In this document: piece after piece, positions 8,201-31,292 of the stretch
Layout: every line of letters begins with the position of its first letter
How positions within the stretch are numbered: position 1 is the stretch's first letter
Source: Chloroflexota bacterium
GTDB taxonomy: Bacteria > Chloroflexota > Dehalococcoidia > GIF9 > UBA5629
DNA: 64,000 bases
Assembly: GCA_036821185.1 (NCBI GenBank)
Contig: DAISKD010000001.1
Location: 367,406 to 431,405 of the forward strand
Direction of reading: 5' to 3'
Notes under the pieces: model-generated
Database searches by the model: none
What the model saw: only the letters and a program-made list of their open reading frames with translations
What the model was told of the DNA's origin: nothing
Translations under genes and position numbers: made by a program

Positions 8201-9156
8201 CCGTCAAGTTGCACTATGGGGCGGAGATCCGGAGGTAGAACGGGAAGGACAGTTAAGATCATCCACCCTGGCTTATTGCCACTGCGCCAGAAAGCCTCGA
8301 CTACTCGCAATCTTTTTATCGCCTTCTTGCGGCATTGTCCTGAACTGGAACGTACCTCGTCCCACAGCTCCTGCCGCAACTTACCAAGATCCATCCCCCT
8401 AAGGATATCAAGGATCGCCTCGGCCCCCATCGAGGCCTTGAAAAAATCACCAAACTCCGCTTTTAACTCCTGATACTGACTTTCGGTAAGCAGCACCGAC
8501 GGCCTCAGATTCTCCAAGATCGACACTTTCTCTTGCAACATATCTTGAAGCTCGGCCTTTTCCTCAGCGAACTCACGGCGTAGTTCGTTTATTCTTGCAA
8601 TCGTCTCGGTGGCTAGTCCATGCCCCTCTTTAGATTCCTCATCCGAAATGTACTTTTCCAGCGCCACCTCCTTTCTTGAAACTCGCTGGCTCAATCCTTC
8701 CTTCATCCGTCTAACTATTTCATCACGAGCCTTCTCGTCGACCGAAGTAACAATATACTGAGCAAAATATAAGACGCGCTCAAGGTTACGAGGGGAAATG
8801 TCCAAAAGCAGCGCCAACCTGCTTGGTATACCTTTGGCAAACCAGACGTGAGCAACAGGTGCAGCCAGTTCGATATGCCCCATGCGTATTCTGCGCACCC
8901 TGGAGTGTTCTACGGTGACACCACATCTATCGCAAGTCACACCGCGATATCGGATCTTCTTATACTTGCCACAATAACACTCGTAATTTTTCGTCGGTCC
9001 AAAAATCCTCTCACAGAAAAGCCCATCCTTCTCCGGTTTCAAAGTACGATAGTTTATCGTCTCCGGCTCAGTTACTTCACCGTAAGACCAACTTCTAATC
9101 TGTTCCGGAGAAGCCAGGGAAATTCTTACTGCATTGAAATCGTTGACTTCTATCAT
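5272..9156 (-). CDS. rpoC: DNA-directed RNA polymerase subunit beta'
   Basis: 1294 aa. Zn-finger [20 protein letters not shown] and the catalytic NADFDGDQM motif. The start overlaps the rpoB stop by 4 bp (ATGA). Confidence 0.97.
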
Positions 9157-14665: not shown

Positions 14666-15973
14666 TCAGTATGCTATCAGACTGGGCAAAAAGGTAGCAA
14701 GTGGCGGGAATGCCACGAGAATGGCCACCATAGCCACCAGTGCAATCAAGAAAGGTAAAGCACCTTTGAAAACAGTTTCCAATGCCACATCAGGTACGAT
14801 ACTTTTCACCACGTATACATTTACTCCTACAGGTGGTGTGATCACACCCATCCCTGTGGCAAGTACTACCATCACCCCGAACCATATGGGGTCAAAACCC
14901 AGGGCTACAACCACGGGATAGAAAACAGGGATGGTCAAAATAACCAGAGCCAGAGCATCCATAAAACACCCGCCTATAAGATAGACAAACATTATAATCC
15001 CTACGATAGCAAAAGGGGGCAAGGGCAACTGCACCACCGTTTCAGAAAGAATAAGAGGTATCTTAGTCACCGCCATAAAATGGCCGAAGACCGTCGCTCC
15101 AGCTACTATAACCAACACCATACACGTTATCCGCAACGAATCCTTGACTGCCATCAAGAAACCGGACCACTTTAACTGCCGGGTTACCATACCGATAGCC
15201 AACACACCAGCAGCCCCCACACCACCAGCCTGCGTAGGACTGAACCAGCCCAAAAAGAGTCCGGTAATAACAAAAGTGAACAGAACCAGAGTTTCAATAA
15301 CTCCGGCGAAGGCACCGGTCTCTTTCCTGCTGCCATACAGCTCTGTGGTCAGCGGTGCTAGGTCCGGACGCAACTTACACAACAGCGCCACAGTAACTAT
15401 GAATAAGCCTGCCAGTATCAAACCAGGGAAAATGCCGGCAACGAACAGCTTCCCGATCGACTGCTCAGTCATCACACCGTACACAATAAAAACTGTACTA
15501 GGCGGAATCAGTATACCCAGTGTGCCAGCAGCAGCTATACAACCAGTAGCCAGCGAGTCATCATATCCATATCGTCTCATTTCAGGCACAGACACCCTGC
15601 CCATAGCTGCTGCAGTAGCCGTAGTCGAACCACAAATTGCCGCAAAGCCAGCGCAAGCCGCTACAGCCGCCATAGCCAGCCCACCACGCAGTCTGCCCAT
15701 CACCACATGAGCGGCATCATATAGCCGCTGTCCCATCCCCGATGCAAAGGCAACGCAACCCATTAGTACAAACATGGGGATGACGGTAAAGGAGTAAGAC
15801 GAAAATGTGTAAAAAATGTCTCTAGCCAGCACACTAAACGCCGCCTCTGGAGAGACCAGACAGCTAAAGCCAACTACACCCACCAGAGCCATAGCAAAAC
15901 CAACCGGCATCCGAAGGAGGAAAAGGACAACCAACAGGACTATGCCGATAATTCCAAGAATCGGTGGGCTCAT
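14666..15973 (-). CDS. dctM: TRAP transporter large permease subunit DctM
   Basis: 435 aa with ~12 TM segments, typical DctM length and hydrophobicity. Overlaps dctQ by 4 bp. Confidence 0.85.
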   Translation of the reverse strand: MSPPILGIIGIVLLVVLFLLRMPVGFAMALVGVVGFSCLVSPEAAFSVLARDIFYTFSSYSFTVIPMFVLMGCVAFASGMGQRLYDAAHVVMGRLRGGLAMAAVAACAGFAAICGSTTATAAAMGRVSVPEMRRYGYDDSLATGCIAAAGTLGILIPPSTVFIVYGVMTEQSIGKLFVAGIFPGLILAGLFIVTVALLCKLRPDLAPLTTELYGSRKETGAFAGVIETLVLFTFVITGLFLGWFSPTQAGGVGAAGVLAIGMVTRQLKWSGFLMAVKDSLRITCMVLVIVAGATVFGHFMAVTKIPLILSETVVQLPLPPFAIVGIIMFVYLIGGCFMDALALVILTIPVFYPVVVALGFDPIWFGVMVVLATGMGVITPPVGVNVYVVKSIVPDVALETVFKGALPFLIALVAMVAILVAFPPLATFLPSLIAY

Positions 15974-16452
15974 TTCTTTGAATTCATGGCATCAAGATAC
16001 TGCACAATCAACACCAGACAGACTACTATAGCAGACAGAGCTATACCATAGAGAAGAGGGTAGAATGGCAACCTTTGGGTCATAGAGACTTCGCCACTTG
16101 ACTGGAGACTATACCCGAAATCCAAACTTCTCCAAGCTATCAATCCAAACAACAGAATCGATAAGGGATAGATAATGCTAGCAACAACCCTTCGCCCCAC
16201 CTTCGGCAGACGCGATACCAAGAATTCCACCTCAATATGACCACGAGTGACCTGAGTCTCGGCTATGGCAAAGCCGATAACTACCACACCTAGGAAGGCA
16301 ACGAGTTCAATGCCACCGGGTACAGGGTTACGAAACACCTTGGCACTTATTACATCGATAATTACAAGGACCAGCATCAGAACTAGTGCTGCCCCGGCAC
16401 AATAGTTTAACCACCTGCTCAATGCACGAGTCACTACCTCGAACTTGCGCAT
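15970..16452 (-). CDS. dctQ: TRAP transporter small permease subunit DctQ
   Basis: 160 aa, 4 TM segments. N-terminal cytoplasmic RALSRWLNY... is typical of DctQ. Confidence 0.75.
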   Translation of the reverse strand: MRKFEVVTRALSRWLNYCAGAALVLMLVLVIIDVISAKVFRNPVPGGIELVAFLGVVVIGFAIAETQVTRGHIEVEFLVSRLPKVGRRVVASIIYPLSILLFGLIAWRSLDFGYSLQSSGEVSMTQRLPFYPLLYGIALSAIVVCLVLIVQYLDAMNSKK

Positions 16453-16539: not shown

Positions 16540-17655
16540 CTACTTGGTAGTAACTAACTCCTTTTCCACCCAGTTGACACAGAATTCGTCACTAGGTGCT
16601 TTTTCTGACCAATACTTTACTCTCGCGACCAAGTAGTCATGATACTCTTTGGCCGGCAATCCCATTGCCGACTTTTGCTGGATATATTCATCTATCAAAG
16701 GTTGGGCTGCCCTTACCCACCTTGCCATTTCGTTTGCTGACAGCTCGATCAACACCCTTTCCGGAAAACTAAGGAAATACTCTATCGCCACTTTGTCATA
16801 ATAGGTCCAGACCATACCATGTTTCTCTACCCATTCTTCACTTACATCAAGAAACACCTTTTTAACATCGCTGGGAAAACCTTCCCACTTCGCCTTATTT
16901 ATCACCACAAACATGTCGGTGGTATTGCCAACGTCATAACAAAGGGTCACATATTTCACCACCTCGGCTTGCTTCCACCCTTTGAGCACCTCTCTTGGCG
17001 TGAAGCTGCCATCAATCGTCCCTTTTGACATCAGCTCATAAGCCTCACCTTGGGAAGCTCCATACCCCTTCGCTCCTAGAGCCTCCACTATCTTGGCACC
17101 CACCCCTGTCGACCTGATGACCAGTCCTCTTAGATCTTCTAGTTTTCTTACCGGCTTTTTAGTGGTGAACAAGACTCCAGGACCATGAGCATGAAAATAC
17201 AAGACCTGCACATCATCAAATTCTTTCGGCTTAAATTTACGATAAAAGTCGTTCGCCACCTTGGTCGCCACCCAACCGCTGGGATACCCGTGCGGCAGAT
17301 CCACTATCTCGGATGCAGGAAACCTGCCCATCGTATAGGCCAAGCACGACATGCCTATGTCAGAGATACCTTTTACGACCCCCTCATAGACCCCGGCTGC
17401 TGGAGTGAGCGAACCGCCAGGGTAGTGAGTAATACGCACTCTACCGTTGGTGCGCTGCTCGACTTCGCGGCAAAACCTTTCAGCTAATACGGAGTTCAAA
17501 TGGGTCGGGGGAAAGAAATTGCTGTAAGATAGCTCTATGACCTCAGATGACCTTGTGGGCTTTACACCAGCACACGACCCCGATGCCACCACCACAGCAA
17601 GGATCAGTACCACAATCTGTGCAAATATGGCCAATCTCATTGCTCGCCTCCTCAA
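16540..17655 (-). CDS. dctP: TRAP transporter solute-binding protein (DctP family), lipoprotein
   Basis: Signal peptide with a lipobox-like ASGSCAG. The DctP-type core (IELSYSNFFPPTHLNSVLAERFCREVEQRTNGRVRITHYPGGSL) matches the DctP N-terminal consensus. First gene of the P-Q-M-ligase minus-strand run. Confidence 0.75.
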   Translation of the reverse strand: MRRRAMRLAIFAQIVVLILAVVVASGSCAGVKPTRSSEVIELSYSNFFPPTHLNSVLAERFCREVEQRTNGRVRITHYPGGSLTPAAGVYEGVVKGISDIGMSCLAYTMGRFPASEIVDLPHGYPSGWVATKVANDFYRKFKPKEFDDVQVLYFHAHGPGVLFTTKKPVRKLEDLRGLVIRSTGVGAKIVEALGAKGYGASQGEAYELMSKGTIDGSFTPREVLKGWKQAEVVKYVTLCYDVGNTTDMFVVINKAKWEGFPSDVKKVFLDVSEEWVEKHGMVWTYYDKVAIEYFLSFPERVLIELSANEMARWVRAAQPLIDEYIQQKSAMGLPAKEYHDYLVARVKYWSEKAPSDEFCVNWVEKELVTTK

Positions 17656-17856: not shown

Positions 17857-20103
17857 CTACTTGACTTCCTTTCTGTAACGACGGGCAACCCACCAAGCCA
17901 CTACTACTCCACCGCCAATTAGCACTAAAACAGTAGCAACTATCACCCCGATAAGCCAAGCGCTTACTCCTTCTCTGAGAGGTTCGCCAGGAGCAAGGAC
18001 CCTGAATGAGACCTGCTTAGAATCAATGTTGAGTGTATAAGTCCCTGGCTGAACTTTGGTTATACTGAATTCATACCATAGGTAACTTTTACCCTCGACC
18101 CTTACTTCTTGCCTGTGTTCTTCACGCCCATTTATCATAACCGTCAGAGGATAAACATCCGGTGCGCTACCCCTGTTAACTACCTTCACACGCACATTCA
18201 CACTCTGACCAGCATAGACTTGTTCCGGACTAATTTCGACAGCTCCTACTTCCAAGTGCGCAGTTACACGCCCAGGAATCGCCGGCCCTCCTAATACCGT
18301 TATGACACCGTTAGCAGCCCGGTCAGAATCTCCCACGCCACCATCTGTAACACTTATGGTGATGGTGCTGTCACCATCGTCGCTACCTACAGATAATCGC
18401 TGCCAGGAATGACCACCCCCACATTGCCAGAATTGGGTTCCGCCAGGCGTTGGTGCTGGTAAGGTGATACTAACAATAGCAGTCGAACCAGCAGCAATGT
18501 CAACAACCTTGAACGAAAACAGGCCGTGGAGAAAACTAACATCCGCTGGCTTGCCAGAACAATCTACTTGACTCGGCACAAGTGCCAAAAGATCAGTAAT
18601 GTTGCCAATGCTGGCAGCAAAAACGGCCTTACCCGTCCTTGTAGTAGTACCTACAGACTGCACAGCGCCAGTGGTGAAGTTGACTTGCACGCACTGGCGA
18701 CACTGTTCACTAGGAACACCAGGATGGTGAGGAGCTTCCGCACATACCGTTACACCTCCAGCCGCATTCCCTGAAGTAAGAATAGAAACTGCCCGCCCAG
18801 TGTCGGTAACCTTCACTATTCGGGTATCCTTATTCTCAAAAATGCCCCTCTCTGTGGTAAAGATAATCTCTGTACCGTCAAAAACATGCCCTCTCTCCGC
18901 CGTGTACTCACCTCCCGAGTTCTTCGTCATGTCAGCAACTACCTTTAATGCAGCGCTTCCCCCGATGACCACGCTCTTAGGCTCAGCAGTTACCTCCAGC
19001 CTGAGCCAAGGCTCATATCGCACATTCGCTGAAACACTGTCACCAGAACCAGCACCTGCACCACTAGGTCCATTGTTGGCCCCCCACCAGTTGTTTGTAC
19101 CATCGAGCCATCCTCCGCTCAAATTTTGTATGCCATGAATAGCGTTCTTATAGATAGCGTTAAAGTTTACTTTAACAGTGGGTGCCACCGGCACATTACC
19201 CCACACCACACAGCCACGTGCATTACCAGTCAGTACGTTCCCCATAATATGAACATCAGACGCATAGGACGTAAGCCGTATCCCATCAGGTGTCTCGACT
19301 TCTCCCCCACTCCGCCGCACAGTGCCATCAATCAGATTGCCCGAAACAAACAGCTGCGAACACCATCGGGGCAAAGTAGTTTCCTCAACCAGAATGCCAG
19401 CCATCAAGAAGTCGCTGATCTTATTCCCTAAAACAGTCACGTTTTCTACATGACCAAAAACAATACCGGGGCCATTTACATGCTCGATAGAGTTGCCCTT
19501 GATCCCACTGTTCGTTAGCGTACCCAGCCAAAACCCTGCTTTTCCCGTCCCGAGCACTCCATCAATACGGTTGTTAGCTATCGACCACCCTTTATAGCTG
19601 TTACGGTCGCCGGTATCGTACAGAAAGACAGCCGAACCAATGCAGCTCGTGAAACTATTCGACTTTATCGTAATATTATGAGCGCCAACGCCACCGAAAA
19701 TAACAGCCTCAGCTGAGCTAATCTTCTCAAATCTTAAACCCTGAATTACAGTGCCGCTGCCGTCACTCCCTATGGTTATCAGCGACCAATTAGAACTACC
19801 ACCAGTGAGCACAACGCTGCTCGTTGTATAATCCCCGGTGGGAGATGTCAGCGTTATTTTTTTGTTGATATTCAGCAGCTCATTGTATATCCCCGAGCCC
19901 ACGACTATAGTGTCGCCTTGCCCAGCCCTTTCTATAGCATGTTGGATAGTACGCCATGGTCTCTTATAGCTACCATCACCTTTAACATCATCCCCGCTGA
20001 CAGATACGTGCCAGGTATTTTGTGCTTTCACAACGCTAACCGGAACCACAAGCCCCACCACTAGAGCCGCCAAGATTACCCATATTAATGCGCGATTCCT
20101 CAT
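17857..20103 (-). CDS. Cell-surface right-handed parallel beta-helix protein (pectate-lyase/NosD-like repeats) with CARDB-like domain and C-terminal TM anchor
   Basis: Signal peptide. Repeated GxxGNxI...N beta-helix rungs (e.g. ITIKSNSFTSC, IANNRIDG, IKGNSIEH, VLGNKISD, VSGNLIDG, IMGNVLTGN). A CARDB-like segment (YAGQSVNVRVKVVNRGSAPDVYPLTVMINGRE) precedes the C-terminal hydrophobic anchor plus RRYRKEVK. Confidence 0.6.
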   Translation of the reverse strand: MRNRALIWVILAALVVGLVVPVSVVKAQNTWHVSVSGDDVKGDGSYKRPWRTIQHAIERAGQGDTIVVGSGIYNELLNINKKITLTSPTGDYTTSSVVLTGGSSNWSLITIGSDGSGTVIQGLRFEKISSAEAVIFGGVGAHNITIKSNSFTSCIGSAVFLYDTGDRNSYKGWSIANNRIDGVLGTGKAGFWLGTLTNSGIKGNSIEHVNGPGIVFGHVENVTVLGNKISDFLMAGILVEETTLPRWCSQLFVSGNLIDGTVRRSGGEVETPDGIRLTSYASDVHIMGNVLTGNARGCVVWGNVPVAPTVKVNFNAIYKNAIHGIQNLSGGWLDGTNNWWGANNGPSGAGAGSGDSVSANVRYEPWLRLEVTAEPKSVVIGGSAALKVVADMTKNSGGEYTAERGHVFDGTEIIFTTERGIFENKDTRIVKVTDTGRAVSILTSGNAAGGVTVCAEAPHHPGVPSEQCRQCVQVNFTTGAVQSVGTTTRTGKAVFAASIGNITDLLALVPSQVDCSGKPADVSFLHGLFSFKVVDIAAGSTAIVSITLPAPTPGGTQFWQCGGGHSWQRLSVGSDDGDSTITISVTDGGVGDSDRAANGVITVLGGPAIPGRVTAHLEVGAVEISPEQVYAGQSVNVRVKVVNRGSAPDVYPLTVMINGREEHRQEVRVEGKSYLWYEFSITKVQPGTYTLNIDSKQVSFRVLAPGEPLREGVSAWLIGVIVATVLVLIGGGVVVAWWVARRYRKEVK

Positions 20104-20191: not shown

Positions 20192-20264
20192 CCGGGACGA
20201 ATTGTGTTACGGTATCATCAAAGGCACTACATATAGTAATTTGAATCTGTAAGGAGGAGCACTA

Positions 20265-21596
20265 GTGATAAGAAATAACTCTAATTTCGATGATAAGCAA
20301 GACGAGCCTCCCGGCTTGGCGACCACCGACAACGATGCGGTGGTGGAGGACGAAGAACCTCCAAGTTCCGGTAGCAATACTAAAGACCTTAGTATACGGG
20401 AGAAGATTTTTGGCTATGTCCCAGACAAGAATTGGTACGATTGGAAATGGCAGTTCCGACATAGGATTACCAGTGTTGAACAACTGGCGCACCTGATACC
20501 ACTCTCGAAAAAGGAACAGATAGAGCTCAAATTAGTAAGCGGTAGGTATCCATTCTCCATAACCCCATATTATCTATCCCTCATTGACCTTAGTAACCCT
20601 GACGACCCTATCAAAAAACAAGCTATTCCTTCATTTCAGGAGATAGCTTTGTCCGGCAATGGGTCTGAAGACCCTCTTACCGAAAAAAGGCAGTCCGTGG
20701 TTCCGGGCCTAGTGCATCGCTACCCTGACAGAGTTCTTATGGTACTTACCGACATATGTCCCGTCCTTTGTCGCCACTGTACCCGCAAACGGGAATGGCA
20801 CACGGGTGGCTGGGTGCACACTCCAGCAGAAATCGCACTAATGCTTGACTATATCCGAAAACACAAAGAAATCAGGGATGTGATAATATCAGGGGGTGAC
20901 CCTTTATCGCTTTCCACATCACGTCTTGAAAGCATTATCGCTGGTCTGAGACAAATCAAACATGTAGAAATAATCCGCATTGGTACCAGATTTCCCGTCG
21001 TATTACCCCAGCGTATCGACGATGAACTGTGCAACATGTTATCTAAATACGGTCCCATATGGCTTAATACACAATTTAACCATCCTAAAGAGATAACCCC
21101 TGAGTCCGCGGCCGCTTGTGATAAGTTATTGCGAGCGGGGATACCTGTAAGCAATCAATCAGTGTTGCTCAAGGGCATAAACGACTCAGTAGCAATTCAG
21201 CTGAAGCTCTGCCACGGACTTCTAAGGATAAAAGTGCGTCCTTACTACCTCTTTCAGTGCGACGAAGTTAAAGGGACAGAACATTTCCGCACACCTGTGG
21301 AGACCGGCATCATGATAATCGAAAAAATGCGGGGACATACCTCCGGACTGGCTGTGCCCACCTTTGTTATCGACTTACCGGATGGTGGCGGGAAAGTCCC
21401 TCTCCAGCCAAATTATCTGCTGGCACACACACAAAGCGAGCTTATACTGAGAAATTACCAGGGGCGGTTCTTCTGGTACCGGAACCCCAAAGCAGAACCT
21501 GAATCGACCGAAGTGTCCTGGCTGTCTGAACACTATGACCTAACAGCACAAGTGAGAGACGGATATAATCAGCCCCACCCGGTAGCCAAGAAATGA
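20265..21596 (+). CDS. kamA: Lysine 2,3-aminomutase (radical SAM, KamA family) with a ~45-aa acidic N-terminal extension
   Basis: GTG start 7 nt after AAGGAGG. KamA hallmarks: NWYDWKWQFRHRI, ITPYYLSLID, radical-SAM CPVLCRHCTRK, PLP-lysine region LPQRIDDELCNMLSKYGPIWLNTQFNHP, GGGK. Asp is retained at both positions that bind the lysine epsilon-amino group (QCDEVKG, VIDLPDGGGK), which argues for a lysine rather than glutamate substrate. It lacks the C-terminal Cys cluster of clostridial KamA. Confidence 0.85.
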   Translation: MIRNNSNFDDKQDEPPGLATTDNDAVVEDEEPPSSGSNTKDLSIREKIFGYVPDKNWYDWKWQFRHRITSVEQLAHLIPLSKKEQIELKLVSGRYPFSITPYYLSLIDLSNPDDPIKKQAIPSFQEIALSGNGSEDPLTEKRQSVVPGLVHRYPDRVLMVLTDICPVLCRHCTRKREWHTGGWVHTPAEIALMLDYIRKHKEIRDVIISGGDPLSLSTSRLESIIAGLRQIKHVEIIRIGTRFPVVLPQRIDDELCNMLSKYGPIWLNTQFNHPKEITPESAAACDKLLRAGIPVSNQSVLLKGINDSVAIQLKLCHGLLRIKVRPYYLFQCDEVKGTEHFRTPVETGIMIIEKMRGHTSGLAVPTFVIDLPDGGGKVPLQPNYLLAHTQSELILRNYQGRFFWYRNPKAEPESTEVSWLSEHYDLTAQVRDGYNQPHPVAKK

Positions 21597-22615
21597 GAAT
21601 AGGTCTGACTTATGACTTGAAAGAAGACGTCCAGAGGGAGCTGCATTCAACTTCTTCTGCATCCCTGGAAGACGCCCTGGAGGAATACGACTGCGCAGAA
21701 ACCATAGACGCCATTGCTTCTGCCCTAAAAGGTAACGGCTATTCGGTTATTAAACTCGGCGGAGGCAAAGCTTTTTTGAACAACATTCTTCGTTGCAGCG
21801 TTGACTTTGTATTCAATATAGCTGAGGGCAGAGGTACTTACAAGAGCAGGGAAGCGCAGATCCCGTGCGTCCTTGAAATGCTGGGGATTCCATATTCAGG
21901 CTCCGATCCCCAATGTCTGTCAATATGTTTGGACAAACCACTGACCAAAAAATTGGTAGCGATATCGGGTATATGCACCCCCAGATGGAAACTCGTCACT
22001 AATGTTAGCCAACTAACAGATATAGAGCATACACCATTCCCTCTCCCAGCCTTAATTAAGCCAGCCTATGAAGGTTCAAGTAAGGGCATCCGCTCGAACT
22101 CTATAGCCAGAACGACAACACAGCTAATAGAGATAACAACTTCTGTCCTAGAACGATATCAACAGCCTGTACTGGTCGAGGAGTTTATCGCCGGTGATGA
22201 TATCACGGTAGGCATGATCGGTAACTCGCCAGCTAACGTCCTAGGTATTATGCGCGTCCTGCCCAAAAAAAATACCCAACACTTTGTATATTCACTTGAA
22301 ATGAAACGCGACTGGGAACAGCTACTGGAATATGAATGTCCGGCTAACCTCCCACCAGCAACGACCGAGCAAATTGCCAAGGCAAGCATCCGAATATTTG
22401 AAACCCTGGGATGCCGGGACTTTGCCAGGATCGACTTCAGGCTTGGTCAGGATGGAAACTCTTACTTCTTAGAAATAAACCCGTTGCCTGGACTTAACCC
22501 CAAAAGCAGTGACCTACCTATCATGGCAAGCAAAATGGGCATGAGCTACCAGCATCTTATCATTGAAATACTAAAGTCAGCTCTACAAAGGTACTCTCAA
22601 TGCGTGGCGAGATAA
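21593..22615 (+). CDS. ATP-grasp ligase, D-Ala-D-Ala-ligase-like (first of two)
   Basis: Overlaps the kamA stop by 4 bp. Ddl-like layout: central-domain FNIAEGRGTYKSREAQIPCVLEMLGIPYSGS, then LIKPAYEGSSKGI (the ATP-grasp lysine loop), then the C-terminal Mg/ATP motif FARIDFRLGQDGNSYFLEINPLPGL. Confidence 0.75.
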   Translation: MRIGLTYDLKEDVQRELHSTSSASLEDALEEYDCAETIDAIASALKGNGYSVIKLGGGKAFLNNILRCSVDFVFNIAEGRGTYKSREAQIPCVLEMLGIPYSGSDPQCLSICLDKPLTKKLVAISGICTPRWKLVTNVSQLTDIEHTPFPLPALIKPAYEGSSKGIRSNSIARTTTQLIEITTSVLERYQQPVLVEEFIAGDDITVGMIGNSPANVLGIMRVLPKKNTQHFVYSLEMKRDWEQLLEYECPANLPPATTEQIAKASIRIFETLGCRDFARIDFRLGQDGNSYFLEINPLPGLNPKSSDLPIMASKMGMSYQHLIIEILKSALQRYSQCVAR

Positions 22616-23688
22616 CCATAATATACAATACGCCAGACCTGGATGCTTGTATCACTATTGTAGAAAAAAAGGCATCGCTCCGTATCGTTTCCGATGTGAA
22701 CTTTGTACATCAAGCTCTGCAGAAAATCGGATTCCGCGTCTCATGCCTCCCTCTCAAGCCGCCGCTCCAGTCAGCAATAAGACGCCTCGAATCCATTAAG
22801 GCCGACCTGATTTTCAACCTTTTTGAGGGGTTTGAATCTCAGCCAGAAACTGAGGCGATCGTTGCCGACTTCTTGGCACGTCTTGGTATCCCTTATACAG
22901 GCTGCACTGGAACAGCCCTTTCCCTAGCTTCGGACAAAGCCGCAGTTAAGACGCTTCTCCAAGCAGCTGGCATAAACACGCCGAAATACCAGGTCTTGGA
23001 GCCAACGACTTTACATCTTTTTGCCCTGGACTTCCCTTGCATAGTAAAGCCGCGCTCACAACATGGCAGTTTGGGCATTTGTGAGGCAAGTGTGGTCTAC
23101 AACTTTGCAGCGCTGGAAAAGCAGGTAATGACAACCAGTCAGCGCTTCCGAGATAGGGCAATTGTGGAAGAATTTATTGAAGGGAGGGAATTTAACATCA
23201 CGATCCTCGGAACACGCCCACCGGAAACACTGCCTATTTCAGAGATAAAATATTCCCTGCCACAAGGCATGCCACCTATCCTGACCTTTTCAGCTAAGTG
23301 GGACCCTGAAAGCCTCTACTTCAAACACACTACCCCTCAATGCCCAGCAGAAATCGACCATGCACTCGAACAACACATAACCACTATAACTCGTACTGCC
23401 TTTGAAATTTTAGGCAACCGAGGCTATGCAAGAATAGACCTCCGTCTGGACAAGAAAGGAGAACCCAAAGTCCTCGAGCTAAACCCAAACCCTGACATTT
23501 CACCAGACTCTGGCGCTACATTACAAGCCCGCGTTGCAGGCATGGACTACGAACAGTTCATCGAAAAGCTGGTTCAGCTAGCCTTGGAGGACTATGATGC
23601 CAGTAGCAACTACCAGAGCTATGAGAAAGGAAGACAAGCCGTATATAATGGAAATACTAAACAATACTCCAGAGTTCAAACCCAATGA
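22600..23688 (+). CDS. ATP-grasp ligase, D-Ala-D-Ala-ligase-like (second paralog)
   Basis: Overlaps the previous gene by 16 bp. Parallel motifs: FNLFEGFESQPETEAIVADFLARLGIPYTGC, IVKPRSQHGSLGI, YARIDLRLDKKGEPKVLELNPNPDI. Confidence 0.75.
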   Translation: MRGEITIIYNTPDLDACITIVEKKASLRIVSDVNFVHQALQKIGFRVSCLPLKPPLQSAIRRLESIKADLIFNLFEGFESQPETEAIVADFLARLGIPYTGCTGTALSLASDKAAVKTLLQAAGINTPKYQVLEPTTLHLFALDFPCIVKPRSQHGSLGICEASVVYNFAALEKQVMTTSQRFRDRAIVEEFIEGREFNITILGTRPPETLPISEIKYSLPQGMPPILTFSAKWDPESLYFKHTTPQCPAEIDHALEQHITTITRTAFEILGNRGYARIDLRLDKKGEPKVLELNPNPDISPDSGATLQARVAGMDYEQFIEKLVQLALEDYDASSNYQSYEKGRQAVYNGNTKQYSRVQTQ

Positions 23689-24079
23689 GATAGTAGTAGC
23701 TGAGGAGGTCCTGGACAACTACCTGCACGAAGGTGTGCGTTCAGGGTATCATGTAATAGTTGCAGAAATAAGCTCTTCAATCACGGGTTATATTTGCTTC
23801 GGGCAGACACCGCTCACCGAGGCGACATGGGATATATATTGGCTGGCCACTTTACCCAAATTTCGCCAACAAGGCATTGGCACGACCCTGTTAAAATCTG
23901 CTGAAGAGGAAATAAGAAAAGCCAAAGGCAAGATGATCATCGTCGAAACGTCATCCAGACCGGAATACAACAAAGCAAGGTCTCTCTACCGATCACTAGG
24001 TTACCAACTCACCTGTCAGATCCCTGACTTTTATGCCAATGGTGACGATAAACTCGTCCTGATAAAGCGCCTTCACTGA
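23594..24079 (+). CDS. GNAT-family N-acetyltransferase
   Basis: Acetyl-CoA-binding motif RQQGIGTTLLKSAEEE and a C-terminal YRSLGY. The start is uncertain (alternatives at 23621 or 23648). All choices overlap the upstream ATP-grasp gene, which suggests translational coupling. Confidence 0.7.
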   Translation: MMPVATTRAMRKEDKPYIMEILNNTPEFKPNEIVVAEEVLDNYLHEGVRSGYHVIVAEISSSITGYICFGQTPLTEATWDIYWLATLPKFRQQGIGTTLLKSAEEEIRKAKGKMIIVETSSRPEYNKARSLYRSLGYQLTCQIPDFYANGDDKLVLIKRLH

Positions 24080-24296: not shown

Positions 24297-25418
24297 ATGG
24301 CAAACGGCATTTCACTTGGCAAAGCGTTTGGCATCCCGCTAAGGCTACATTATTCCTGGTTTATCGTATTTGCCCTCGTGACCTGGGCATTGACAGTCGG
24401 ATATTTCCCACATACACACCCCCATTGGAACATGATGACATCGTTCCTTGCCGGGGTACTGACGAGTCTGCTCTTCTTTGGCTCAGTCCTCGCCCACGAG
24501 CTGGCACATAGCATAGTAGCACAAGCTGCCGGAATTAAGATACATTCTATTACGCTCTTTATCTTCGGCGGTGTTTCCCAGATGACCGAAGAGCCCAAGC
24601 GACCTCAGGTCGAATTCCGAATGGCCCTCGCTGGACCCGGCACCAGCTTAGTGATAGGCGGCATTTTCCTAGCTATTTACTTTTACCTGTCAAATATCCC
24701 GGAATTTGTAAAAGCAATCTCTTTCTGGCTCGGCTGGATCAACCTTGTTCTTGCAGGCTTCAACCTGATACCGGGATTTCCCCTGGATGGGGGGAGAGTG
24801 CTCCGTTCACTGCTATGGTGGCGAAGTGGAGAGCTGCTCAAAGCCACCAGAACAGCTTCCAACATCGGACGTGGCGTAGGCTACCTGTTTATCTTCGTCG
24901 GTATCGGTCTGATATTCTATGGGAGCTGGGTAAACGGTGTCTGGCTGGCCTTCATCGGCTGGTTTCTTGAGAACGCTGCTGCCACCAGCTATCGCCAGCT
25001 AGCGCTACTTGATATGCTCAAGGGACATACCGTCAGGGAACTCATGACTACAGAGTGCCCCACTGTCTCGCCACAGCTAAGCATCGAGCGATTGGTACAC
25101 GAGCAAATATTTACCTCGGGACGGCGTTGCTTCCCTGTGATAGACAAAGAAAAGATGCTCGGCCTGGTGACGATACATGATGTAAAATCCGTGCCCCGGG
25201 AACAATGGGTAAACAAAACAGTCGCCGATGTCATGACTCTAGCCCCGAAACTCAAATCGGTGGGACCCGACGACGACCTCGCAACAGTCCTTCGGATACT
25301 CACTGAACACAACATCAACCAGGTTCCAGTAGTCAAAAATGGTAACCTCTTAGGCATGATCGCACGTGATACCCTTCTCACCTTCATAAGCGTGCGGAGC
25401 GAGCTGGGGACTGCATAG
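24297..25418 (+). CDS. Site-2 protease (peptidase M50 family) with a C-terminal CBS-domain pair
   Basis: HExxH zinc motif HELAHSIVAQAAG inside a TM helix and a downstream LDGG motif (FPLDGGRV). The C-terminal ~120 aa carry two CBS repeats (VRELMTTECPTVSP..., VADVMTLAP...). Confidence 0.8.
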   Translation: MANGISLGKAFGIPLRLHYSWFIVFALVTWALTVGYFPHTHPHWNMMTSFLAGVLTSLLFFGSVLAHELAHSIVAQAAGIKIHSITLFIFGGVSQMTEEPKRPQVEFRMALAGPGTSLVIGGIFLAIYFYLSNIPEFVKAISFWLGWINLVLAGFNLIPGFPLDGGRVLRSLLWWRSGELLKATRTASNIGRGVGYLFIFVGIGLIFYGSWVNGVWLAFIGWFLENAAATSYRQLALLDMLKGHTVRELMTTECPTVSPQLSIERLVHEQIFTSGRRCFPVIDKEKMLGLVTIHDVKSVPREQWVNKTVADVMTLAPKLKSVGPDDDLATVLRILTEHNINQVPVVKNGNLLGMIARDTLLTFISVRSELGTA

Positions 25419-25555
25419 AAACAATTGTCATGAGCGACCATCATAGGTATTGCCTCGTCAGCATGAATACTGTAGAATTTTCGTCAAAATAACAAAACCA
25501 TATGATGCCAGGTCTAGGCCATGCTTGAATTGGAGAACAAAAAAGGCGGGTAGAT

Positions 25556-26614
25556 ATGGAAAGGGCTAGAATACTTGTCGTAGATGATGAGTCTCAAGTG
25601 ATGGAGGTTCTGTCCAGATATCTGAATAACATTGGCCACCAATGCGGTGTAGCCTGCGATGGTGACGATGCCCTGAACAAAGTTTATGCTGAGCACTTCG
25701 ACGTTGTACTGTTGGACATAAGCATGCCAGGTAGATCCGGGATTGATGTCTTAAAAGAACTGCAGGCCAGGTATCCGGACACGGCTATCATAATGGTTAC
25801 GGCAATAGCTGATATCAACATCGCCATCGATGCCATGCGGAATGGGGCTTATGACTATCTAGTAAAGCCGATCGACTTTAACATGCTCTCAATTAGTATA
25901 GAAAGGGCTCTGGAAAGAAGGAGACTTCTGTTGGAAAATAAAGAGTACCAACTTTATCTGGAGAAAAAAGTCGAGGAACAAACCGCTCAAATAAAGCAGT
26001 CATTTCTGGGTGCCATTAATGCGCTTGTCCAAGCCTTGGAAGCTAAGGACAACTACACTAAAGGTCACTCCATCATGGTGGCGGAAATAGCCGTTGCCAT
26101 AGCCAGAGAGCTAGGTATGCCAGAAGAACGAATTGAAAAGATCCGGCTGGCTGCCCTGCTTCACGACATTGGCAAAATAGGTGTCAAGGAATCCGTCTTG
26201 AACAAGCAAAACGAGCTTACTGCCGAGGAATACGACCACATAAAGTCACACTGCATATTGGGTAAGCGGATCTTGCAACCCATCATCGAAGATGATGAGA
26301 TATTGGACATAATTGTACATCACCACGAAAAATACGATGGCACGGGTTACCCCGATGGGCTGGCAGGAGAGCAGCTCCCGAAGGAAGCTATGATTGTAGC
26401 TGCAGCCGAGGAATATGCTACAAAGCTATCCCAGGACATCATGGTAGTAGCTGTGGCCGATGCCTACACCGCAATGAGTTCAGACCGCCCTCACCGGCAG
26501 GCACTCTCCACCAAAGCTATCGAAGCTGAGCTGGAAAACAATAAGGGCAAGCAGTTCGACCCTGCGGTGGTAGATGCCTTGATCAGGGTGTTAAAAAGAC
26601 GCGGTAGTATATAG
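25556..26614 (+). CDS. Response regulator with receiver domain fused to an HD-GYP c-di-GMP phosphodiesterase domain
   Basis: REC domain: ILVVDDE, DVVLLDISMPGRSG, the phospho-acceptor Asp context, and the conserved K in LVKP. HD-GYP domain: LHDIGKIGV, HHHEKYDGTGYPDGL. Confidence 0.85.
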   Translation: MERARILVVDDESQVMEVLSRYLNNIGHQCGVACDGDDALNKVYAEHFDVVLLDISMPGRSGIDVLKELQARYPDTAIIMVTAIADINIAIDAMRNGAYDYLVKPIDFNMLSISIERALERRRLLLENKEYQLYLEKKVEEQTAQIKQSFLGAINALVQALEAKDNYTKGHSIMVAEIAVAIARELGMPEERIEKIRLAALLHDIGKIGVKESVLNKQNELTAEEYDHIKSHCILGKRILQPIIEDDEILDIIVHHHEKYDGTGYPDGLAGEQLPKEAMIVAAAEEYATKLSQDIMVVAVADAYTAMSSDRPHRQALSTKAIEAELENNKGKQFDPAVVDALIRVLKRRGSI

Positions 26615-26734: not shown

Positions 26735-28912
26735 TCAATCTAAAATCTTGCCTGGTAGATGGGCACGCCAAGTGATAGACAAACAACCGGTTGCACCGGG
26801 AGACAAAGATAAAGGTAGACGAAAAAGAAAACAGCTTGCCTGATACAGTTTTTCTACACCGCCTTCGGAGTTAGAGACGCTTTCCACAGGGAAGTGCCAG
26901 AGACTTACACTTGGTGAGAGCAGCACCTCCAAGTTAAAGCCCAGGTGGTGGTTCCCTACCACCATCCTATTAACGCCATTAAGCTCACCCGGGGAATCAA
27001 GGTAACCGCTAAAATGCAAGTCTGGAACTGTGTAATAGGCTTGTTTATTATGGCCACCGCCAAGCAAATTGATATTCCATTCGCTGCCAAAGATAACATC
27101 TACCTTAAAACTGCTAGTATTTTCCAGTTGGTAGGAAACCTGCAACACATGCTCGCCGCGTCTGTGCTCTATTTGTTTTCGCACAACAAAGCTTGCCGCC
27201 TTGCTCCCGATCCACAGTCGCCCCTCTCTCCACAACTCGATCTTAATGTTGTTGCCATTGACCGTTACTGTAGCATCAAACTTCTGTCCGACAAAGTCGC
27301 CTTTTTCTTCAAAATTCCCTCGGGTAAATGCCTCTATACCGACATCACGGACAAAAAAGTGTTCCAGTAGACTAGAACGGGGGTATTTGTCGTACACAAG
27401 CCCTTCTGCCACATCTCTATCCTTTATCCTTATCAAGTCATGTATACTCTGTGTTGTATCCGACCGTTCCGGCTCAGCCGCAACACTGCCCGCTTCAGTT
27501 AAGGCAAAGTGATAGGCCTCAAGCCTTCGTGTCATCGTGCTCAAGAGGTTAAACTCGCAGGAACGCAGATCCCACTCAAAAATAGAACCTCCTTCCTTAG
27601 GACTGATATAGATTGAGGAAACATCGCTCTCCACAATAATCTCCTCAGCACCATCCCCGTCAAAATCTACCTTCTGCCATTCCAGCCAGCCCTGGTACCA
27701 CCCCTTAGACCATCTGCGTCTCCCTCGCAAAATCCCATCAGCCTTATTCTCCGCTTGAATCAGGTGCCGATACGTGGTTGCCCGTATATCAGCCAGATAG
27801 ATCCCTCCGAAGATGCCATGCCAGTAGGGACAGTTACACTGTGCTTTCCACAGCTCTTCAAGGCCACAGTCTACAGTGCTTAAGGCACGGGCTTGATGTA
27901 CTTTACGATGGACAGCCAGCATCTTCCGGTACATCCGGTTGACCTCTGGATACTTGACCAAAAAATTGCGCCACAGCCCACAGTACATATATCTCTTTAT
28001 ATCCTCACGCCCCTCGATCTCGAGTTGCTTCTTCAAATTGCTGTACTGCCATGAATCACTGGCTGGAAGCGACCATTCCATCATTTCATCATAAGAAGCA
28101 CAAGGCAGGTAGATTCTTCCTACGGGCGGGAACATGTTGGTATACTCACCCAGCGGCACAGTGCATAACCACTCTCGATTAGCTTCCAGTTCGGTAAAAA
28201 ATTCCTCGATCCAGCCATCTTGCCAACAAAGTTTATACGTCCCTGGCCAAACTCCAAATTTTTCCCCATCATCGCCCATTACTGCTATCCCACCATCGAT
28301 AGCTATGGCCCTTTCCTTTAGGTAATCCACCACCTCACTCACTTTCCTCCACGGTATGGAATAACGCAACAGCTTGCTTATGGGGAACAACATTATCTGT
28401 TTACCCTGTTCCTCAGTGACATAGTATCCGAACAGGGCCTCTTGCTTCAGTCCTACAGATTTGAAGGCGCCACCGTCAACCAATGTCAACTCCATCCCGG
28501 CTTCAGCCAGAATCTTGGCTAGGTGTGGTTCCCAAACACGCTCCGCCAGCCAAAAACCGCGGGGAACCACACCGAACTTGCCCTTGATAAACATATTCAT
28601 CTTGGCTATCTGCCCCACCTTATCAGCATCTGGAATAGACGGCAAGATCGGTTCATAGTAGGCACCACCCATAATTTCCACCTGACCACGCTCTACAAGC
28701 CTAGCAAGACGTGACAAAAATTCAGGGTGAACCGCTTCCAGCCAATCGTAAAGGCAACCGCTGTAATGTAAGGATAGCCTGACAGCACCATGCCTCTCCA
28801 AAGACTCAAGCATCGGCAGGTATGCCTGTTTATAAGCCTGCTCGAACACCCAAGGGAAATTACCGACCGGCTGGTGGTTATGTATTGCAAGCCCTAAATA
28901 AATACGATTCAC
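26735..28912 (-). CDS. Glycoside hydrolase family 57 enzyme (4-alpha-glucanotransferase/alpha-amylase type) with C-terminal extension
   Basis: N-terminal GH57 signature LGLAIHNHQPVGNF and downstream WLAERVW, GGAYYEPIL. 725 aa is similar to archaeal GH57 glucanotransferases. Confidence 0.8.
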   Translation of the reverse strand: MNRIYLGLAIHNHQPVGNFPWVFEQAYKQAYLPMLESLERHGAVRLSLHYSGCLYDWLEAVHPEFLSRLARLVERGQVEIMGGAYYEPILPSIPDADKVGQIAKMNMFIKGKFGVVPRGFWLAERVWEPHLAKILAEAGMELTLVDGGAFKSVGLKQEALFGYYVTEEQGKQIMLFPISKLLRYSIPWRKVSEVVDYLKERAIAIDGGIAVMGDDGEKFGVWPGTYKLCWQDGWIEEFFTELEANREWLCTVPLGEYTNMFPPVGRIYLPCASYDEMMEWSLPASDSWQYSNLKKQLEIEGREDIKRYMYCGLWRNFLVKYPEVNRMYRKMLAVHRKVHQARALSTVDCGLEELWKAQCNCPYWHGIFGGIYLADIRATTYRHLIQAENKADGILRGRRRWSKGWYQGWLEWQKVDFDGDGAEEIIVESDVSSIYISPKEGGSIFEWDLRSCEFNLLSTMTRRLEAYHFALTEAGSVAAEPERSDTTQSIHDLIRIKDRDVAEGLVYDKYPRSSLLEHFFVRDVGIEAFTRGNFEEKGDFVGQKFDATVTVNGNNIKIELWREGRLWIGSKAASFVVRKQIEHRRGEHVLQVSYQLENTSSFKVDVIFGSEWNINLLGGGHNKQAYYTVPDLHFSGYLDSPGELNGVNRMVVGNHHLGFNLEVLLSPSVSLWHFPVESVSNSEGGVEKLYQASCFLFRLPLSLSPGATGCLSITWRAHLPGKILD

Positions 28913-28992
28913 CTTTCTAACCTACAATCTGCGAAACGCCTCAGAACCGTGGCATTATTATCAAGGCAAATTTAGCTATCGCACATGGGAAA

Positions 28993-30294
28993 TCAGTCGG
29001 TATAAAGCTTGTCCACTATTTGGTCAAAAATATGCCTGGCGGCGACCACCTTATAATAGTACTCTTTCTTGATGGACGAGCTACAATTGCTCGTAGATAT
29101 TGCTTTGTAGGCATTAAGCAGCACCTCTCGCTGAAGATTCAGACCACGATAGACCATGTTCACATCCCACATAGGTTTCTTGCTTGCCCACCAGAACTGG
29201 CAACTATGCAGAGCAGCATCAAGTTTTGACCTGGCAATCCTAGCAAAATTGCGGCTCGAATCGCTATCCGCTAGCTCTACAGCCCGATGGGCGACGTCCA
29301 TCGTGATCTCCAAGTGCTCCCACTGTAACTGGTGGATGAGATTATTTTTGTCTTTCCAGAGCGGGTAGTAATTCCCAGCCTTTATGTCATCTGCAGACGT
29401 GCTCCACGACGATGGTCGGGGCTCTATCGTTTCACCACGGGGAAACAGTTCCAGAAGCTGGCTTATAGTGACCATTCTGATCTGTTTATCTTCTTCTTTA
29501 CTTTCAAACTGGAATAACTTGCGGTGTTGGTCGGCAAGCAACTTCTGCTCGTGGAGCAATCGGTCACCATTTTGCCTCGGTTCCAGCGTCTCAAAAACTG
29601 GTGACAGAAAAAGCTTATCCCAGTGCTGTATATGGTGTCCGAATGTTTCCGCATCCATGGCGGTTATCACATATACGTCGCCTTCCGACCTTCGCAAGCG
29701 TCGGAGATGCTCGATAAAGCTTTCACCATCAATGTCTCTGAAACTTATCTTGTTGCTTAAAATATCATCACGGAAAAACACGGCTATCTTGCTTTCCTCA
29801 TGCCCAGCTTGGTATATCACGTCTAAAGGCCATGGCGCAGAACATGCGACACCGCTCAGAACAATCCACTCATGTCTGGACTCAATAACTGGATCAATTA
29901 TCGCCTGTGAGTAGCAGAGCTCCGGTGGGAAAAAACCGCGTGGGGCGTAGACCTCACCGAGAACACTGCGATTGGTAATGTAGTTCAATTTAATCTGCCG
30001 CTCTACCTCCTCTCCCGGTATCAATGGCAATATTGGATGGTACATTGCCGTTCCAGTAAACTCTAGCTGCTCCTTCTCGGCTAACTGCCTTAGCTTTGAG
30101 AGTATATCAGAATAGCCACACTGCAATAGCATCTCCGTGAGCACACCGCAGATGTTTACCGTAGCCTTAGCATGGGGAAACTCAGCGATTACTTCGAGTA
30201 ACGGACGGTAAGCCTCGTTACTGACCTTCATCAGAACGCTTGTAGTCTGGGTAGGCGGCTGATAGAAATGAAACAGAGGTGCCCAATAGATCAT
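28993..30294 (-). CDS. GH57-family protein, shorter paralog of unknown specificity
   Basis: N-terminal PLFHFYQPPTQ and AMDAETFGHH are GH57-like catalytic-region motifs. 433 aa. Confidence 0.55.
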   Translation of the reverse strand: MIYWAPLFHFYQPPTQTTSVLMKVSNEAYRPLLEVIAEFPHAKATVNICGVLTEMLLQCGYSDILSKLRQLAEKEQLEFTGTAMYHPILPLIPGEEVERQIKLNYITNRSVLGEVYAPRGFFPPELCYSQAIIDPVIESRHEWIVLSGVACSAPWPLDVIYQAGHEESKIAVFFRDDILSNKISFRDIDGESFIEHLRRLRRSEGDVYVITAMDAETFGHHIQHWDKLFLSPVFETLEPRQNGDRLLHEQKLLADQHRKLFQFESKEEDKQIRMVTISQLLELFPRGETIEPRPSSWSTSADDIKAGNYYPLWKDKNNLIHQLQWEHLEITMDVAHRAVELADSDSSRNFARIARSKLDAALHSCQFWWASKKPMWDVNMVYRGLNLQREVLLNAYKAISTSNCSSSIKKEYYYKVVAARHIFDQIVDKLYTD

Positions 30295-31292
30295 ATCTTT
30301 GTTCCCTCCCGTGCCTGACTAAAAACATAGGTAGCAGCACCCAATATCCCGGCATTGACAACGAAGCGTGCCCTTACAATACGCGCCCTATTACCTGGGA
30401 GGGCAAACGCCAGCGATTTTGCAACCCTACATGCTGGCTCAAGTAATAGATTGCCCATTTTGGCAAGCCCACCACCAATTACAACTACCTCAGGGTTAAA
30501 AACATTGATAATGTTTGCCAGCCCAATACCTAGGTAGTTGGCAGCATTGTCTATCACCCTTCGGGCTAAAACATCACCTTGTCTGGCAGCCGCCGATACT
30601 ACCGCTGCGGTCACTAGCTCCATTTTACCATCGGCAAGTCGGAGGATTGAACTCTCCTCGCCTTTCTTTAAAAACTCCACCGCATCCCTAGCAACTGCCC
30701 ATCCTGAAGCCAGAGACTCAAGACAGCCCAATCTCCCGCACTTACATGGTGGACCGTCGGCTTTTATAATCATATGCCCTATTTCGCCAGCAGAACCATT
30801 CGCACCCAAGTATAGACTCCCATCTATTACCATACCACCCCCTATACCTGTGCTGACCGTCAGGTAGATAAGGTTTCTAATTCGACTCCTAGCCCCGACG
30901 CCGAATTTGTATTCACCCAAGGCTGCAGCACTGGCATCGTTTATGAGATAGCATTTGACACCAAACTCACGAGCAATTATGTCCCGAAGATGAACGTGGG
31001 AAAAGCCCGGCAAGTTGGGCGATTCGGCGACAATTCCTTTGTTCATGTCAATGATACCAGCGCAGGCAACAACAATCCCCACCACTTCCGGTTTTGTCAG
31101 CTTCACCCTCGCGAGCGTTTCGCCGATGGCCAACAAAAGTCGCTCCATCACAGCTTTAGCCCCCTCACCACTTCTGGTCGGGTAAAGACGCCGTGACGCT
31201 ATTCCACCATCCGGATGAACCAGGGCAACATTCATCTTAGTACCGCCCAGGTCGACAGCCAGCGCCAGGCGTCGTTTGCTTATACCGGTCAC
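30291..31292 (-). CDS. ROK-family glucokinase
   Basis: N-terminal ATP motif LAVDLGGTKMNVAL and the ROK zinc motif CKCGRLGCLES. Overlaps its neighbours by 4 bp on both sides. Confidence 0.8.
   Translation of the reverse strand: MTGISKRRLALAVDLGGTKMNVALVHPDGGIASRRLYPTRSGEGAKAVMERLLLAIGETLARVKLTKPEVVGIVVACAGIIDMNKGIVAESPNLPGFSHVHLRDIIAREFGVKCYLINDASAAALGEYKFGVGARSRIRNLIYLTVSTGIGGGMVIDGSLYLGANGSAGEIGHMIIKADGPPCKCGRLGCLESLASGWAVARDAVEFLKKGEESSILRLADGKMELVTAAVVSAAARQGDVLARRVIDNAANYLGIGLANIINVFNPEVVVIGGGLAKMGNLLLEPACRVAKSLAFALPGNRARIVRARFVVNAGILGAATYVFSQAREGTKI

Follow-up and report, generated by a model that had tools for sequence, protein, structure and literature searches.

The stretch of DNA analysed here (the window) comprises 64,000 nucleotides of a Chloroflexota bacterium (Dehalococcoidia; contig DAISKD010000001.1 of assembly GCA_036821185.1, positions 367,406 to 431,405 of the forward strand), and carries at 20265–24079 four overlapping + strand open reading frames (ORFs), i.e. 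those of a lysine 2,3-aminomutase of KamA type, two ATP-grasp ligases and a small GNAT acetyltransferase. An initial annotation, made from the sequence alone, had described these as one translationally coupled unit and as a candidate pathway for an N-acylated beta-lysine peptide or solute; its coordinates are exact, and its view of the genes as a single coupled unit is supported. The kamA-type gene (20265..21596, 443 aa) encodes a radical S-adenosylmethionine (SAM) and pyridoxal phosphate (PLP) enzyme, identified by its Pfam (Radical_SAM and LAM_C) and NCBIfam matches and by alignment, and begins with GTG; since a Shine-Dalgarno sequence AAGGAGG (20251..20257) lies 7 nt upstream of this codon, the N-terminal extension considered below is part of the ORF. 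Ligase 1 (21593..22615, 340 aa) and ligase 2 (22600..23688, 362 aa), both matched by Dala_Dala_lig_C in Pfam and also placed by NCBIfam, are followed by the GNAT gene (23594..24079, 161 aa; Pfam, NCBIfam and PDB matches). The ligase 1 start codon lies over the kamA stop (ATGA, a 4-nt overlap), the two ligase genes overlap by 16 nt, and ligase 2 and the GNAT gene overlap by 92–95 nt, with an ATGATG at 23594/23597 preceded by a second Shine-Dalgarno sequence (GGAGG, 23586..23590) within the 3' end of ligase 2. In public annotation made independently the GNAT starts at ATG 23648 instead, giving a protein of 143 aa and an overlap of 41 nt. An identical ligase 1 protein is encoded on two contigs, in the same gene neighbourhood on both.

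This block of genes is conserved as a unit in related genomes, a point that the initial annotation had suggested checking by a neighbourhood survey. A scan of species-representative genomes (one per GTDB species) identified at least 460 encoded relatives of ligase 1, from which the best 80 loci (65 from Chloroflexota, 7 from Acidobacteriota, 6 from Planctomycetota and 2 from Deferrimicrobiaceae) were searched by tblastn with the four window proteins, and the order kamA, ligase 1, ligase 2, GNAT was found in essentially all of them. Addition of loci reached via the GNAT gave a non-redundant set of 89, of which 75 contain all four genes, and 74 of these 75 are colinear, an arrangement far beyond chance. 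Seven of the 14 incomplete loci are truncated by contig ends, and five are of a Gemmataceae type without an adjacent GNAT gene. Overlaps between consecutive genes recur at 46/85, 67/85 and 63/76 junctions (in gene order). When the ORFs of the 80 loci were clustered just these four genes were common, the next commonest neighbour being present in 16 loci; beyond an occasional deacetylase (see below) this clustering identified no other conserved neighbour, and no transporter or membrane protein that belongs to the cassette. The phyla represented are Chloroflexota, Planctomycetota, Acidobacteriota and Desulfobacterota, with examples in Desulfovibrio mangrovi (L081), Pirellulales (L084), Desulfobacterales (L088) and the contigs L086 and L089. 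One GNAT homologue, in a Phycisphaerae metagenome-assembled genome (L087), lies outside any cassette.

The first protein aligns with the lysine 2,3-aminomutase of Clostridium subterminale (CsKAM, PDB 2A5H) over 364 residues without gaps and at 53% identity, query positions corresponding to CsKAM + 40. Residue invariance was judged from an alignment (A1) of the window KamA with 36 homologues, in all of which the radical-SAM cysteines C165-x3-C169-x2-C172 (20757..20780; CsKAM C125/C129/C132), the carboxylate-binding R174 (CsKAM R134), the two aspartates that bind the lysine epsilon-amino group (D333 and D370; CsKAM D293 and D330) and the PLP lysine K377 (CsKAM K337; D333, D370 and K377 lie within 21261..21395) are invariant. 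In glutamate 2,3-aminomutases Lys and Asn replace the two aspartates. With both aspartates retained, and a score of 458 bits against a cut-off of 650 for the corresponding model (TIGR04368), assignment as a glutamate 2,3-aminomutase was rejected; the arginine model matches at 419 bits (cut-off 600) and the EpmB model TIGR03821 at 240 bits (cut-off 369). The best NCBIfam model is TIGR03820 (AblA), at 486.3 bits, under its equivalog cut-off of 525.4, and other cassette KamAs also fall under this cut-off (461 bits in Desulfovibrio, 489 bits in Pirellulales). The view of the initial annotation that this is a bona fide lysine 2,3-aminomutase with both aspartates is thus upheld by every catalytic residue inspected, whilst its placement in the AblA clade stands in so far as TIGR03820 is the best of the KamA-family models, and falls short in that the score lies just below the cut-off.

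The zinc-binding, C-terminal multimerisation domain of the clostridial enzyme (C268 with C375/C377/C380) is missing from the window KamA: C268 is replaced by S308, the C-terminal tail is without cysteines, the alignment stops at CsKAM residue 368, and the LAM_C model is matched only at positions 1–60 of 127. Elsewhere the absence of such a domain has been noted for YjeK/EpmB (PMC2821294). Taken together, these comparisons strongly support a 2,3-aminomutase that is of lysine type and belongs to a distinct subclade, with a predicted activity of lysine to beta-lysine conversion. Most Dehalococcoidia cassette KamAs (alignment A1, P0405-P0507) carry within their last 15 residues a conserved basic motif resembling PVRVRNENRSRIRP; it is absent from the window KamA, which ends at 21596, and from its closest relatives.

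The two ligases are, as initially annotated, paralogues (29% identity, E 2e-36), and the only strong solved relatives of either are Ddl enzymes (E 1e-29 for ligase 1, 1e-21 for ligase 2). Identity to Ddl of the DdlB/VanA type is only 20–30%, and the Ddl model scores 183 and 149 bits for ligases 1 and 2, respectively, against a cut-off of 243. In a ranking by fold, Ddl and L-amino-acid ligases come first, followed by LysX/ArgX and RimK. Alignment of 81 ligase 1 and 56 ligase 2 sequences with E. coli DdlB (its sequence checked against 1IOV) indicates that the residues for ATP, Mg and phosphoryl transfer (DdlB K97, K144, E180, E187, K215, R255, D257, E270 and N272) are kept in both paralogues, except that E187 is a conservative Asp in window ligase 1. 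In contrast to DdlB and VanA, the cassette enzymes have replacements at Y216, H63, M259, L282, G276 and, in part, E15 and S150 (DdlB numbering), and are linked to kamA and a GNAT gene rather than to mur genes. Ligase 1 has Y216 changed to R239, H63 to E78, E68 to R86, M259 to R283 and L282 to D307; ligase 2 has E15 changed to A25, S150 to A or G, Y216 to W234, H63 to E76, M259 to R282 and G276 to D299; the L282 position is D or G in cassette ligases. These changes at the D-Ala site are paralogue-specific, and are conserved within each paralogue and across phyla. Given the replaced D-Ala-site residues and the scores below cut-off, assignment of either protein as a genuine Ddl was rejected, in agreement with the initial expectation of Ddl-like enzymes that are not Ddl sensu stricto. 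Both are probably active amide-forming enzymes of the small-molecule Ddl lineage that act on new substrates, and the gained Arg, Glu and Asp residues suggest that these substrates are zwitterionic and amino-acid-like. In the ATP-lid loop, where DdlB has E148-G-S150, window ligase 2 reads Q154-H155-G156 (23059–23067); E-D-A is found here in ~80–90% of the wider family, and Q and H as in the window in ~7% of family representatives.

For the fourth protein the best PDB match is 2R7H (E 4e-29), a "putative D-alanine N-acetyltransferase of GNAT family" of uncharacterised function. The initial annotation had expected a relative of AblB; this assignment was rejected, as NCBIfam returned no AblB-family model at E <= 0.01 (its top match, rimI, scores 44 bits where the cut-off is 86) and the protein belongs instead to the family of 2R7H. 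The NCBIfam library includes an AblB model. Contigs L082 and L083, which encode a protein 99% identical to the 2R7H sequence, carry the full four-gene cassette and on this identity should come from the organism that yielded 2R7H or from one very closely related to it; we take 2R7H to be a structural-genomics entry from Desulfovibrio alaskensis G20.

Further evidence that these genes act together comes from gene fusions. Exhaustive searching with ligase 2 (HMMER, E <= 1e-30) retrieved 1358 cluster representatives, the best of which include many proteins of ~500 aa and of ~640–790 aa. According to Pfam the former are ligase–GNAT fusions (P0241, P0242, P0254, P0360 and, in the SAR202 locus L064, a ligase 2–GNAT fusion at 6385–7887) and the latter ligase–ligase fusions (P0253, P0257, P0273, P0277), and the double ligase P0253 lies between kamA and the GNAT gene in L092. 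Such Rosetta-stone fusions argue that the ligases and the GNAT belong to one pathway. In another relative, P0319, a weak match to DUF3109 (27 bits, under the cut-off of 33.5) precedes the ligase domain.

In nine Dehalococcoidia loci the GNAT gene is directly followed by a gene for a protein of 580–600 aa (at 8682–10454 in L009; also in L017, L022, L026, L027, L038, L039, L049 and L063) that combines a GNAT-like N-terminal domain with a domain of the histone-deacetylase family, the best solved relatives of the latter being acetylpolyamine amidohydrolases (E 4e-66). The same GNAT–deacetylase protein is encoded directly after the GNAT gene in D. mangrovi (L081, 8629–10386), and a split pair lies upstream of the cassette in L089 (1074–2661), a locus whose cassette and KamA tail resemble those of the Pirellulales locus. 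The deacetylase is seen in three phyla. It is absent from the window. An enzyme of this kind fits the turnover of a small N-acetylated amine.

As a working model we propose, with confidence evenly divided for and against, that the cassette is co-translated and encodes a self-contained pathway, located in the cytoplasm, for a beta-lysine-containing di- or tripeptide (or pseudopeptide) that bears an N-acetyl group and whose structure and role we infer from the enzymes. The first step would be conversion of L-lysine to beta-lysine by the radical-SAM/PLP enzyme, for which the sequence support is strong. The two Ddl-fold ligases would then each form one amide bond via an acyl-phosphate, either by activating the carboxylate of beta-lysine or by acylating one of its amino groups with another amino or carboxylic acid; the GNAT, at this or another point in the order, would use acetyl-CoA to cap a remaining free amine, and in some lineages the adjacent fusion of a GNAT with an acetylpolyamine-amidohydrolase-like domain could provide for turnover. 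All components come from known enzyme families, and there are precedents for the chemistry. As to physiological role, our leading guess is that the product serves as a compatible or stress solute or as a nitrogen-rich metabolite.

The logic of the cassette parallels that of two known groups of systems and, on comparison, matches neither. Like ablA-ablB of methanogens and yodP-kamA of Bacillus, which produce N-epsilon-acetyl-beta-lysine, it places an aminomutase of the lysine-aminomutase (LAM) type beside a GNAT, with beta-lysine as the likely intermediate. It differs from these in the two conserved ATP-grasp ligases that lie between the genes, in its 2R7H-like GNAT of ~160 aa that has no AblB match, and in a KamA that lacks the Zn/C-terminal domain and bears an EEPP[G/S] tail. 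With the synthesis of N-acetylglutaminylglutamine amide (NAGGN; Ngg, a GNAT–ATP-grasp fusion, with AsnO) and of mammalian N-acetylaspartylglutamate (NAAG; NAT8L with RIMKLA/B) it would share the ribosome-independent assembly of an N-acetylated di- or tripeptide, and fusions of a GNAT with a ligase are seen among cassette relatives too. The Ngg and RIMKL ligases are RimK-type, whereas those of the cassette have the Ddl fold; furthermore, the fusion order here is ligase then GNAT, the building block would come from a radical-SAM aminomutase, and, unlike NAGGN with its partner AsnO, no conserved amidotransferase was found near the cassette on clustering the ORFs of the 80 loci. Microviridin-type graspetide clusters (MdnB/MdnC with the GNAT MdnD) likewise combine two paralogous ATP-grasp ligases with a GNAT; a graspetide cluster, i.e. 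one for a ribosomally synthesised and post-translationally modified peptide, was rejected on finding neither a precursor-peptide gene nor ligases of MdnB/MdnC type, and no plausible small ORF for a precursor peptide flanks the cassette. The initial annotation knew of no described pathway that unites an aminomutase, two ATP-grasp ligases and an acetyltransferase; nor was a description of the cassette found in ~8 million open-access full texts, which include papers on Desulfovibrio functional genomics and on sigma-54.

Several observations weigh against the proposed pathway. The Gemmataceae-type loci have no adjacent GNAT gene, with unrelated genes following ligase 2; outside its own family the nearest characterised relatives of the GNAT, weakly matched, are protein N-terminal acetyltransferases (RimI, Ard1, Naa20/30); and a simple soluble pathway would not call for the conserved tail of KamA. 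With regard to an osmolyte in particular, many carriers are from groundwater, peat, fen and freshwater lakes, i.e. low-salt habitats; these do not favour a salt-specific role and weaken the case for an osmolyte, a function that the data as a whole neither support nor exclude.

The tail merits separate consideration. An N-terminal extension of ~44 aa (20265..20396) is missing in canonical lysine 2,3-aminomutases, the alignment with 2A5H beginning at query residue 45. The initial annotation had noted an acidic, low-complexity extension of ~45 aa: the extension is real, but it is not mere low complexity, as it contains a conserved E-E-E-P-P-[G/S] motif. In the window this occurs twice, as D13-E-P-P-G17 (20301..20315) and D29-E-E-P-P-S34 (20349..20366), and E14, P15 and P16 of the first copy and E31, P32 and P33 of the second are kept in >=90% of the 36 homologues. 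PP[G/S] is present in 64/66 cassette KamA N-termini, in one to three copies per tail (two in 41 sequences), and these 66 tails contain 111 motifs where 1000 composition-preserving shuffles give 6.4 +/- 2.6, a difference whose significance is inflated by the kinship of the sequences. The stronger argument is that the motif is retained across phyla (L001-L063, L066-L071, L081-L089 and L092; Chloroflexota, Planctomycetota and Desulfobacterota) amid hypervariable flanks that cannot be aligned. It is absent in SAR202 L064 and in Deferrimicrobiaceae (L079/L080), and degenerate or uncertain in Acidobacteriota. AlphaFold2 gives residues 1–42 a predicted local distance difference test (pLDDT) score of 21–27, within a model that is poor as a whole (pLDDT 55, shallow alignment). 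The tail might dock the ligases, serve as an acceptor site or cause a translational pause dependent on EF-P. That it is functionally central, either as a covalent acceptor or carrier of a beta-lysine adduct built by the ligases or as an EF-P-sensitive polyproline throttle, we consider improbable; if true, the first would represent new carrier-tethered or protein beta-lysylation chemistry, and the second would couple how much a beta-lysine pathway produces to the condition of the translation machinery.

Consideration of the tail leads to an alternative in which the cassette modifies a protein or peptide, such that carboxylates, possibly those of KamA's own EEPP[G/S] tail, would receive beta-lysine (or another residue) from the ligases and the GNAT would cap the added amine, in the manner of LysW-type carriers, RimK or the tubulin glutamylases. 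This would give a purpose to a conserved acidic motif on a low-confidence segment of the very enzyme that makes beta-lysine, and would accord with the distant similarity of the GNAT to protein N-terminal acetyltransferases and with the position of LysX/ArgX and RimK as the next-best folds. Nevertheless, in fold the ligases clearly resemble the small-molecule enzymes of the Ddl group more than any ATP-grasp enzyme that modifies proteins, the cassettes without the motif (SAR202 L064, Deferrimicrobiaceae L079/L080) still have both ligases and the GNAT, the core cassette contains no hydrolase that could release a tethered product, and the deacetylase that accompanies some cassettes belongs to the acetylpolyamine type, which acts on small molecules. 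We accordingly regard modification of a protein or peptide as unlikely.

A similarly low probability attaches to plain synthesis of N-acetyl-beta-lysine by KamA and the GNAT, with the ligases in an ancillary capacity (for example converting a share of the pool, or making an amide or a lactam). Pairing of KamA with a GNAT is indeed the logic of ablAB and yodP-kamA (PMC2821294), the GNAT content varies in Gemmataceae-type loci, and the deacetylase would suit N-acetyl-beta-lysine, which we liken to N-acetylcadaverine. The GNAT, however, lies outside the AblB family, and the ligases match KamA in strictness of conservation and occur as fusions with one another or with the GNAT, which argues that they catalyse core steps.

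Alternatively, beta-lysine units could be joined head to side chain, as in streptothricin, to yield a short, acetyl-capped polycation that the acidic tail of KamA might bind or sense. Two paralogous ligases could start and extend such a chain; relative to DdlB, the putative substrate site of each has gained conserved acidic residues (ligase 1: E78 and D307; ligase 2: E76 and D299); KamA carries its acidic tail; and the streptothricin acetyltransferases are GNATs that act on beta-lysine. A polymerase of Ddl fold would however be without known precedent, no exporter or resistance-type context is present, and the conserved arginines that the enzymes have likewise acquired (ligase 1: R86, R239 and R283; ligase 2: R282) suggest anionic co-substrates, so that we think an oligomer or polymer decidedly unlikely.

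There is very little likelihood, in our assessment, that the cassette serves an alternative beta-lysylation of EF-P (or of another translation factor), with the PP[G/S] motifs of KamA acting as an EF-P-dependent throttle on the operon. The motif xPPG is a classical EF-P-dependent stall motif, and the copies fall early in the gene that opens the translationally coupled operon, within roughly its first 100 codons (13–34 in the window). As is proposed for the cassette, a KamA-family enzyme (EpmB) supplies beta-lysine for an ATP-dependent ligation (by EpmA) onto EF-P, the modification thereby employing a KamA paralogue (PMC2821294). In contrast to the EpmB–EpmA system, the cassette enzyme belongs to the LAM clade, its ligases are ATP-grasp enzymes and not LysRS paralogues, and there is no efp linkage: tblastn with E. 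coli EF-P and EpmA over the window and loci L001-L089 found neither efp nor epmA. In genomes with both paralogues efp clusters with yjeK, not with the LAM gene (PMC2821294), and two ligases and an acetyltransferase exceed the needs of the task. The initial annotation had identified an EpmB-type modifier of EF-P as the finding that would overturn the pathway, and both the EpmB score given above and the tblastn result speak against one; none of the three outcomes that it named as refuting its view was found. Finally, that these are ordinary cell-wall D-Ala-D-Ala ligases that merely lie beside kamA, as the Dala_Dala_lig_C matches and the public annotation as D-alanine--D-alanine ligase would have it, is contradicted by scores far under every Ddl cut-off, by the replaced D-Ala-site residues, by the strict linkage to kamA and the GNAT gene and by the fusions, and carries a negligible probability.

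If the proposed pathway is correct, the public annotation of these genes (lysine 2,3-aminomutase, D-alanine--D-alanine ligase twice, GNAT) hides a coherent pathway, and its recognition would correct a systematic mis-annotation as Ddl. A new beta-lysine peptide would add a class of metabolite to anaerobes, with possible functions in stress protection, in nitrogen handling or akin to those of polyamines; the carriers are Dehalococcoidia, sulfate reducers, planctomycetes and acidobacteria of anoxic sediments, peat and groundwater. The system is tractable, in that contigs resembling D. alaskensis G20 (99% to the 2R7H sequence) contain the cassette and a crystal structure of the GNAT is available. 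An archived transposon mutant library exists for D. alaskensis G20 (PMC4045070).

Some indication of regulation comes from Desulfobacterota, where in L081, L082 and L092 the gene for a sigma-54 enhancer-binding protein precedes the cassette on the same strand. The regions upstream of the cassette in these three loci (L081 4290-4475; L082 4310-4505; L092 4350-4535) contain sigma-54-type promoter sequences, TGGCAT-N5-TTGCT or GGCACG-N4-TTGCA (GG-N10-GC), together with paired GGAAC-N7-GTTCC inverted repeats. The L082 promoter sequence lies inside the annotated kamA ORF, and the true start is therefore probably a later ATG (MEKTVTL...). These features suggest that the operon may be sigma-54-dependent in Desulfobacterota; in L088 the activator gene is divergent and adjoins a PspA gene, and may represent a separate system. 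The kam locus of B. thuringiensis is also reported to be sigma-54-controlled (PMC4428206). Upstream of the cassette in the window no sigma-54-type promoter was seen, and nowhere in the 64 kb does a match to an Rfam family attain the gathering score.

The genes that neighbour the cassette in the window look unrelated to it. A divergent gene at 17857-20103 (-) encodes a protein of 748 aa in which right-handed beta-helix (pectate-lyase-like) repeats lie between hydrophobic N- and C-terminal segments; this gene is kept in the closest relatives only, and its product could be a surface or S-layer-type protein. Beyond it, at 12.5-17.7 kb (-), lies an operon for a tripartite ATP-independent periplasmic (TRAP) transporter (DctP 16540-17655, DctQ 15970-16452, DctM 14666-15973), adjoined by an AMP-binding, acyl-CoA-synthetase-like gene, which suggests uptake and activation of an organic acid. 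Downstream of the cassette, 24297-26614 (+) and 26735-32000 (-) encode an M50 site-2 protease with CBS domains and a response regulator whose output domain is of HD type (HD_5/HDOD), as well as a cluster for alpha-glucan metabolism that comprises two GH57 enzymes, a glycogen-synthase-like glycosyltransferase and a ROK kinase. In nearly all 2-kb bins of the window the GC skew is negative, regardless of gene strand.

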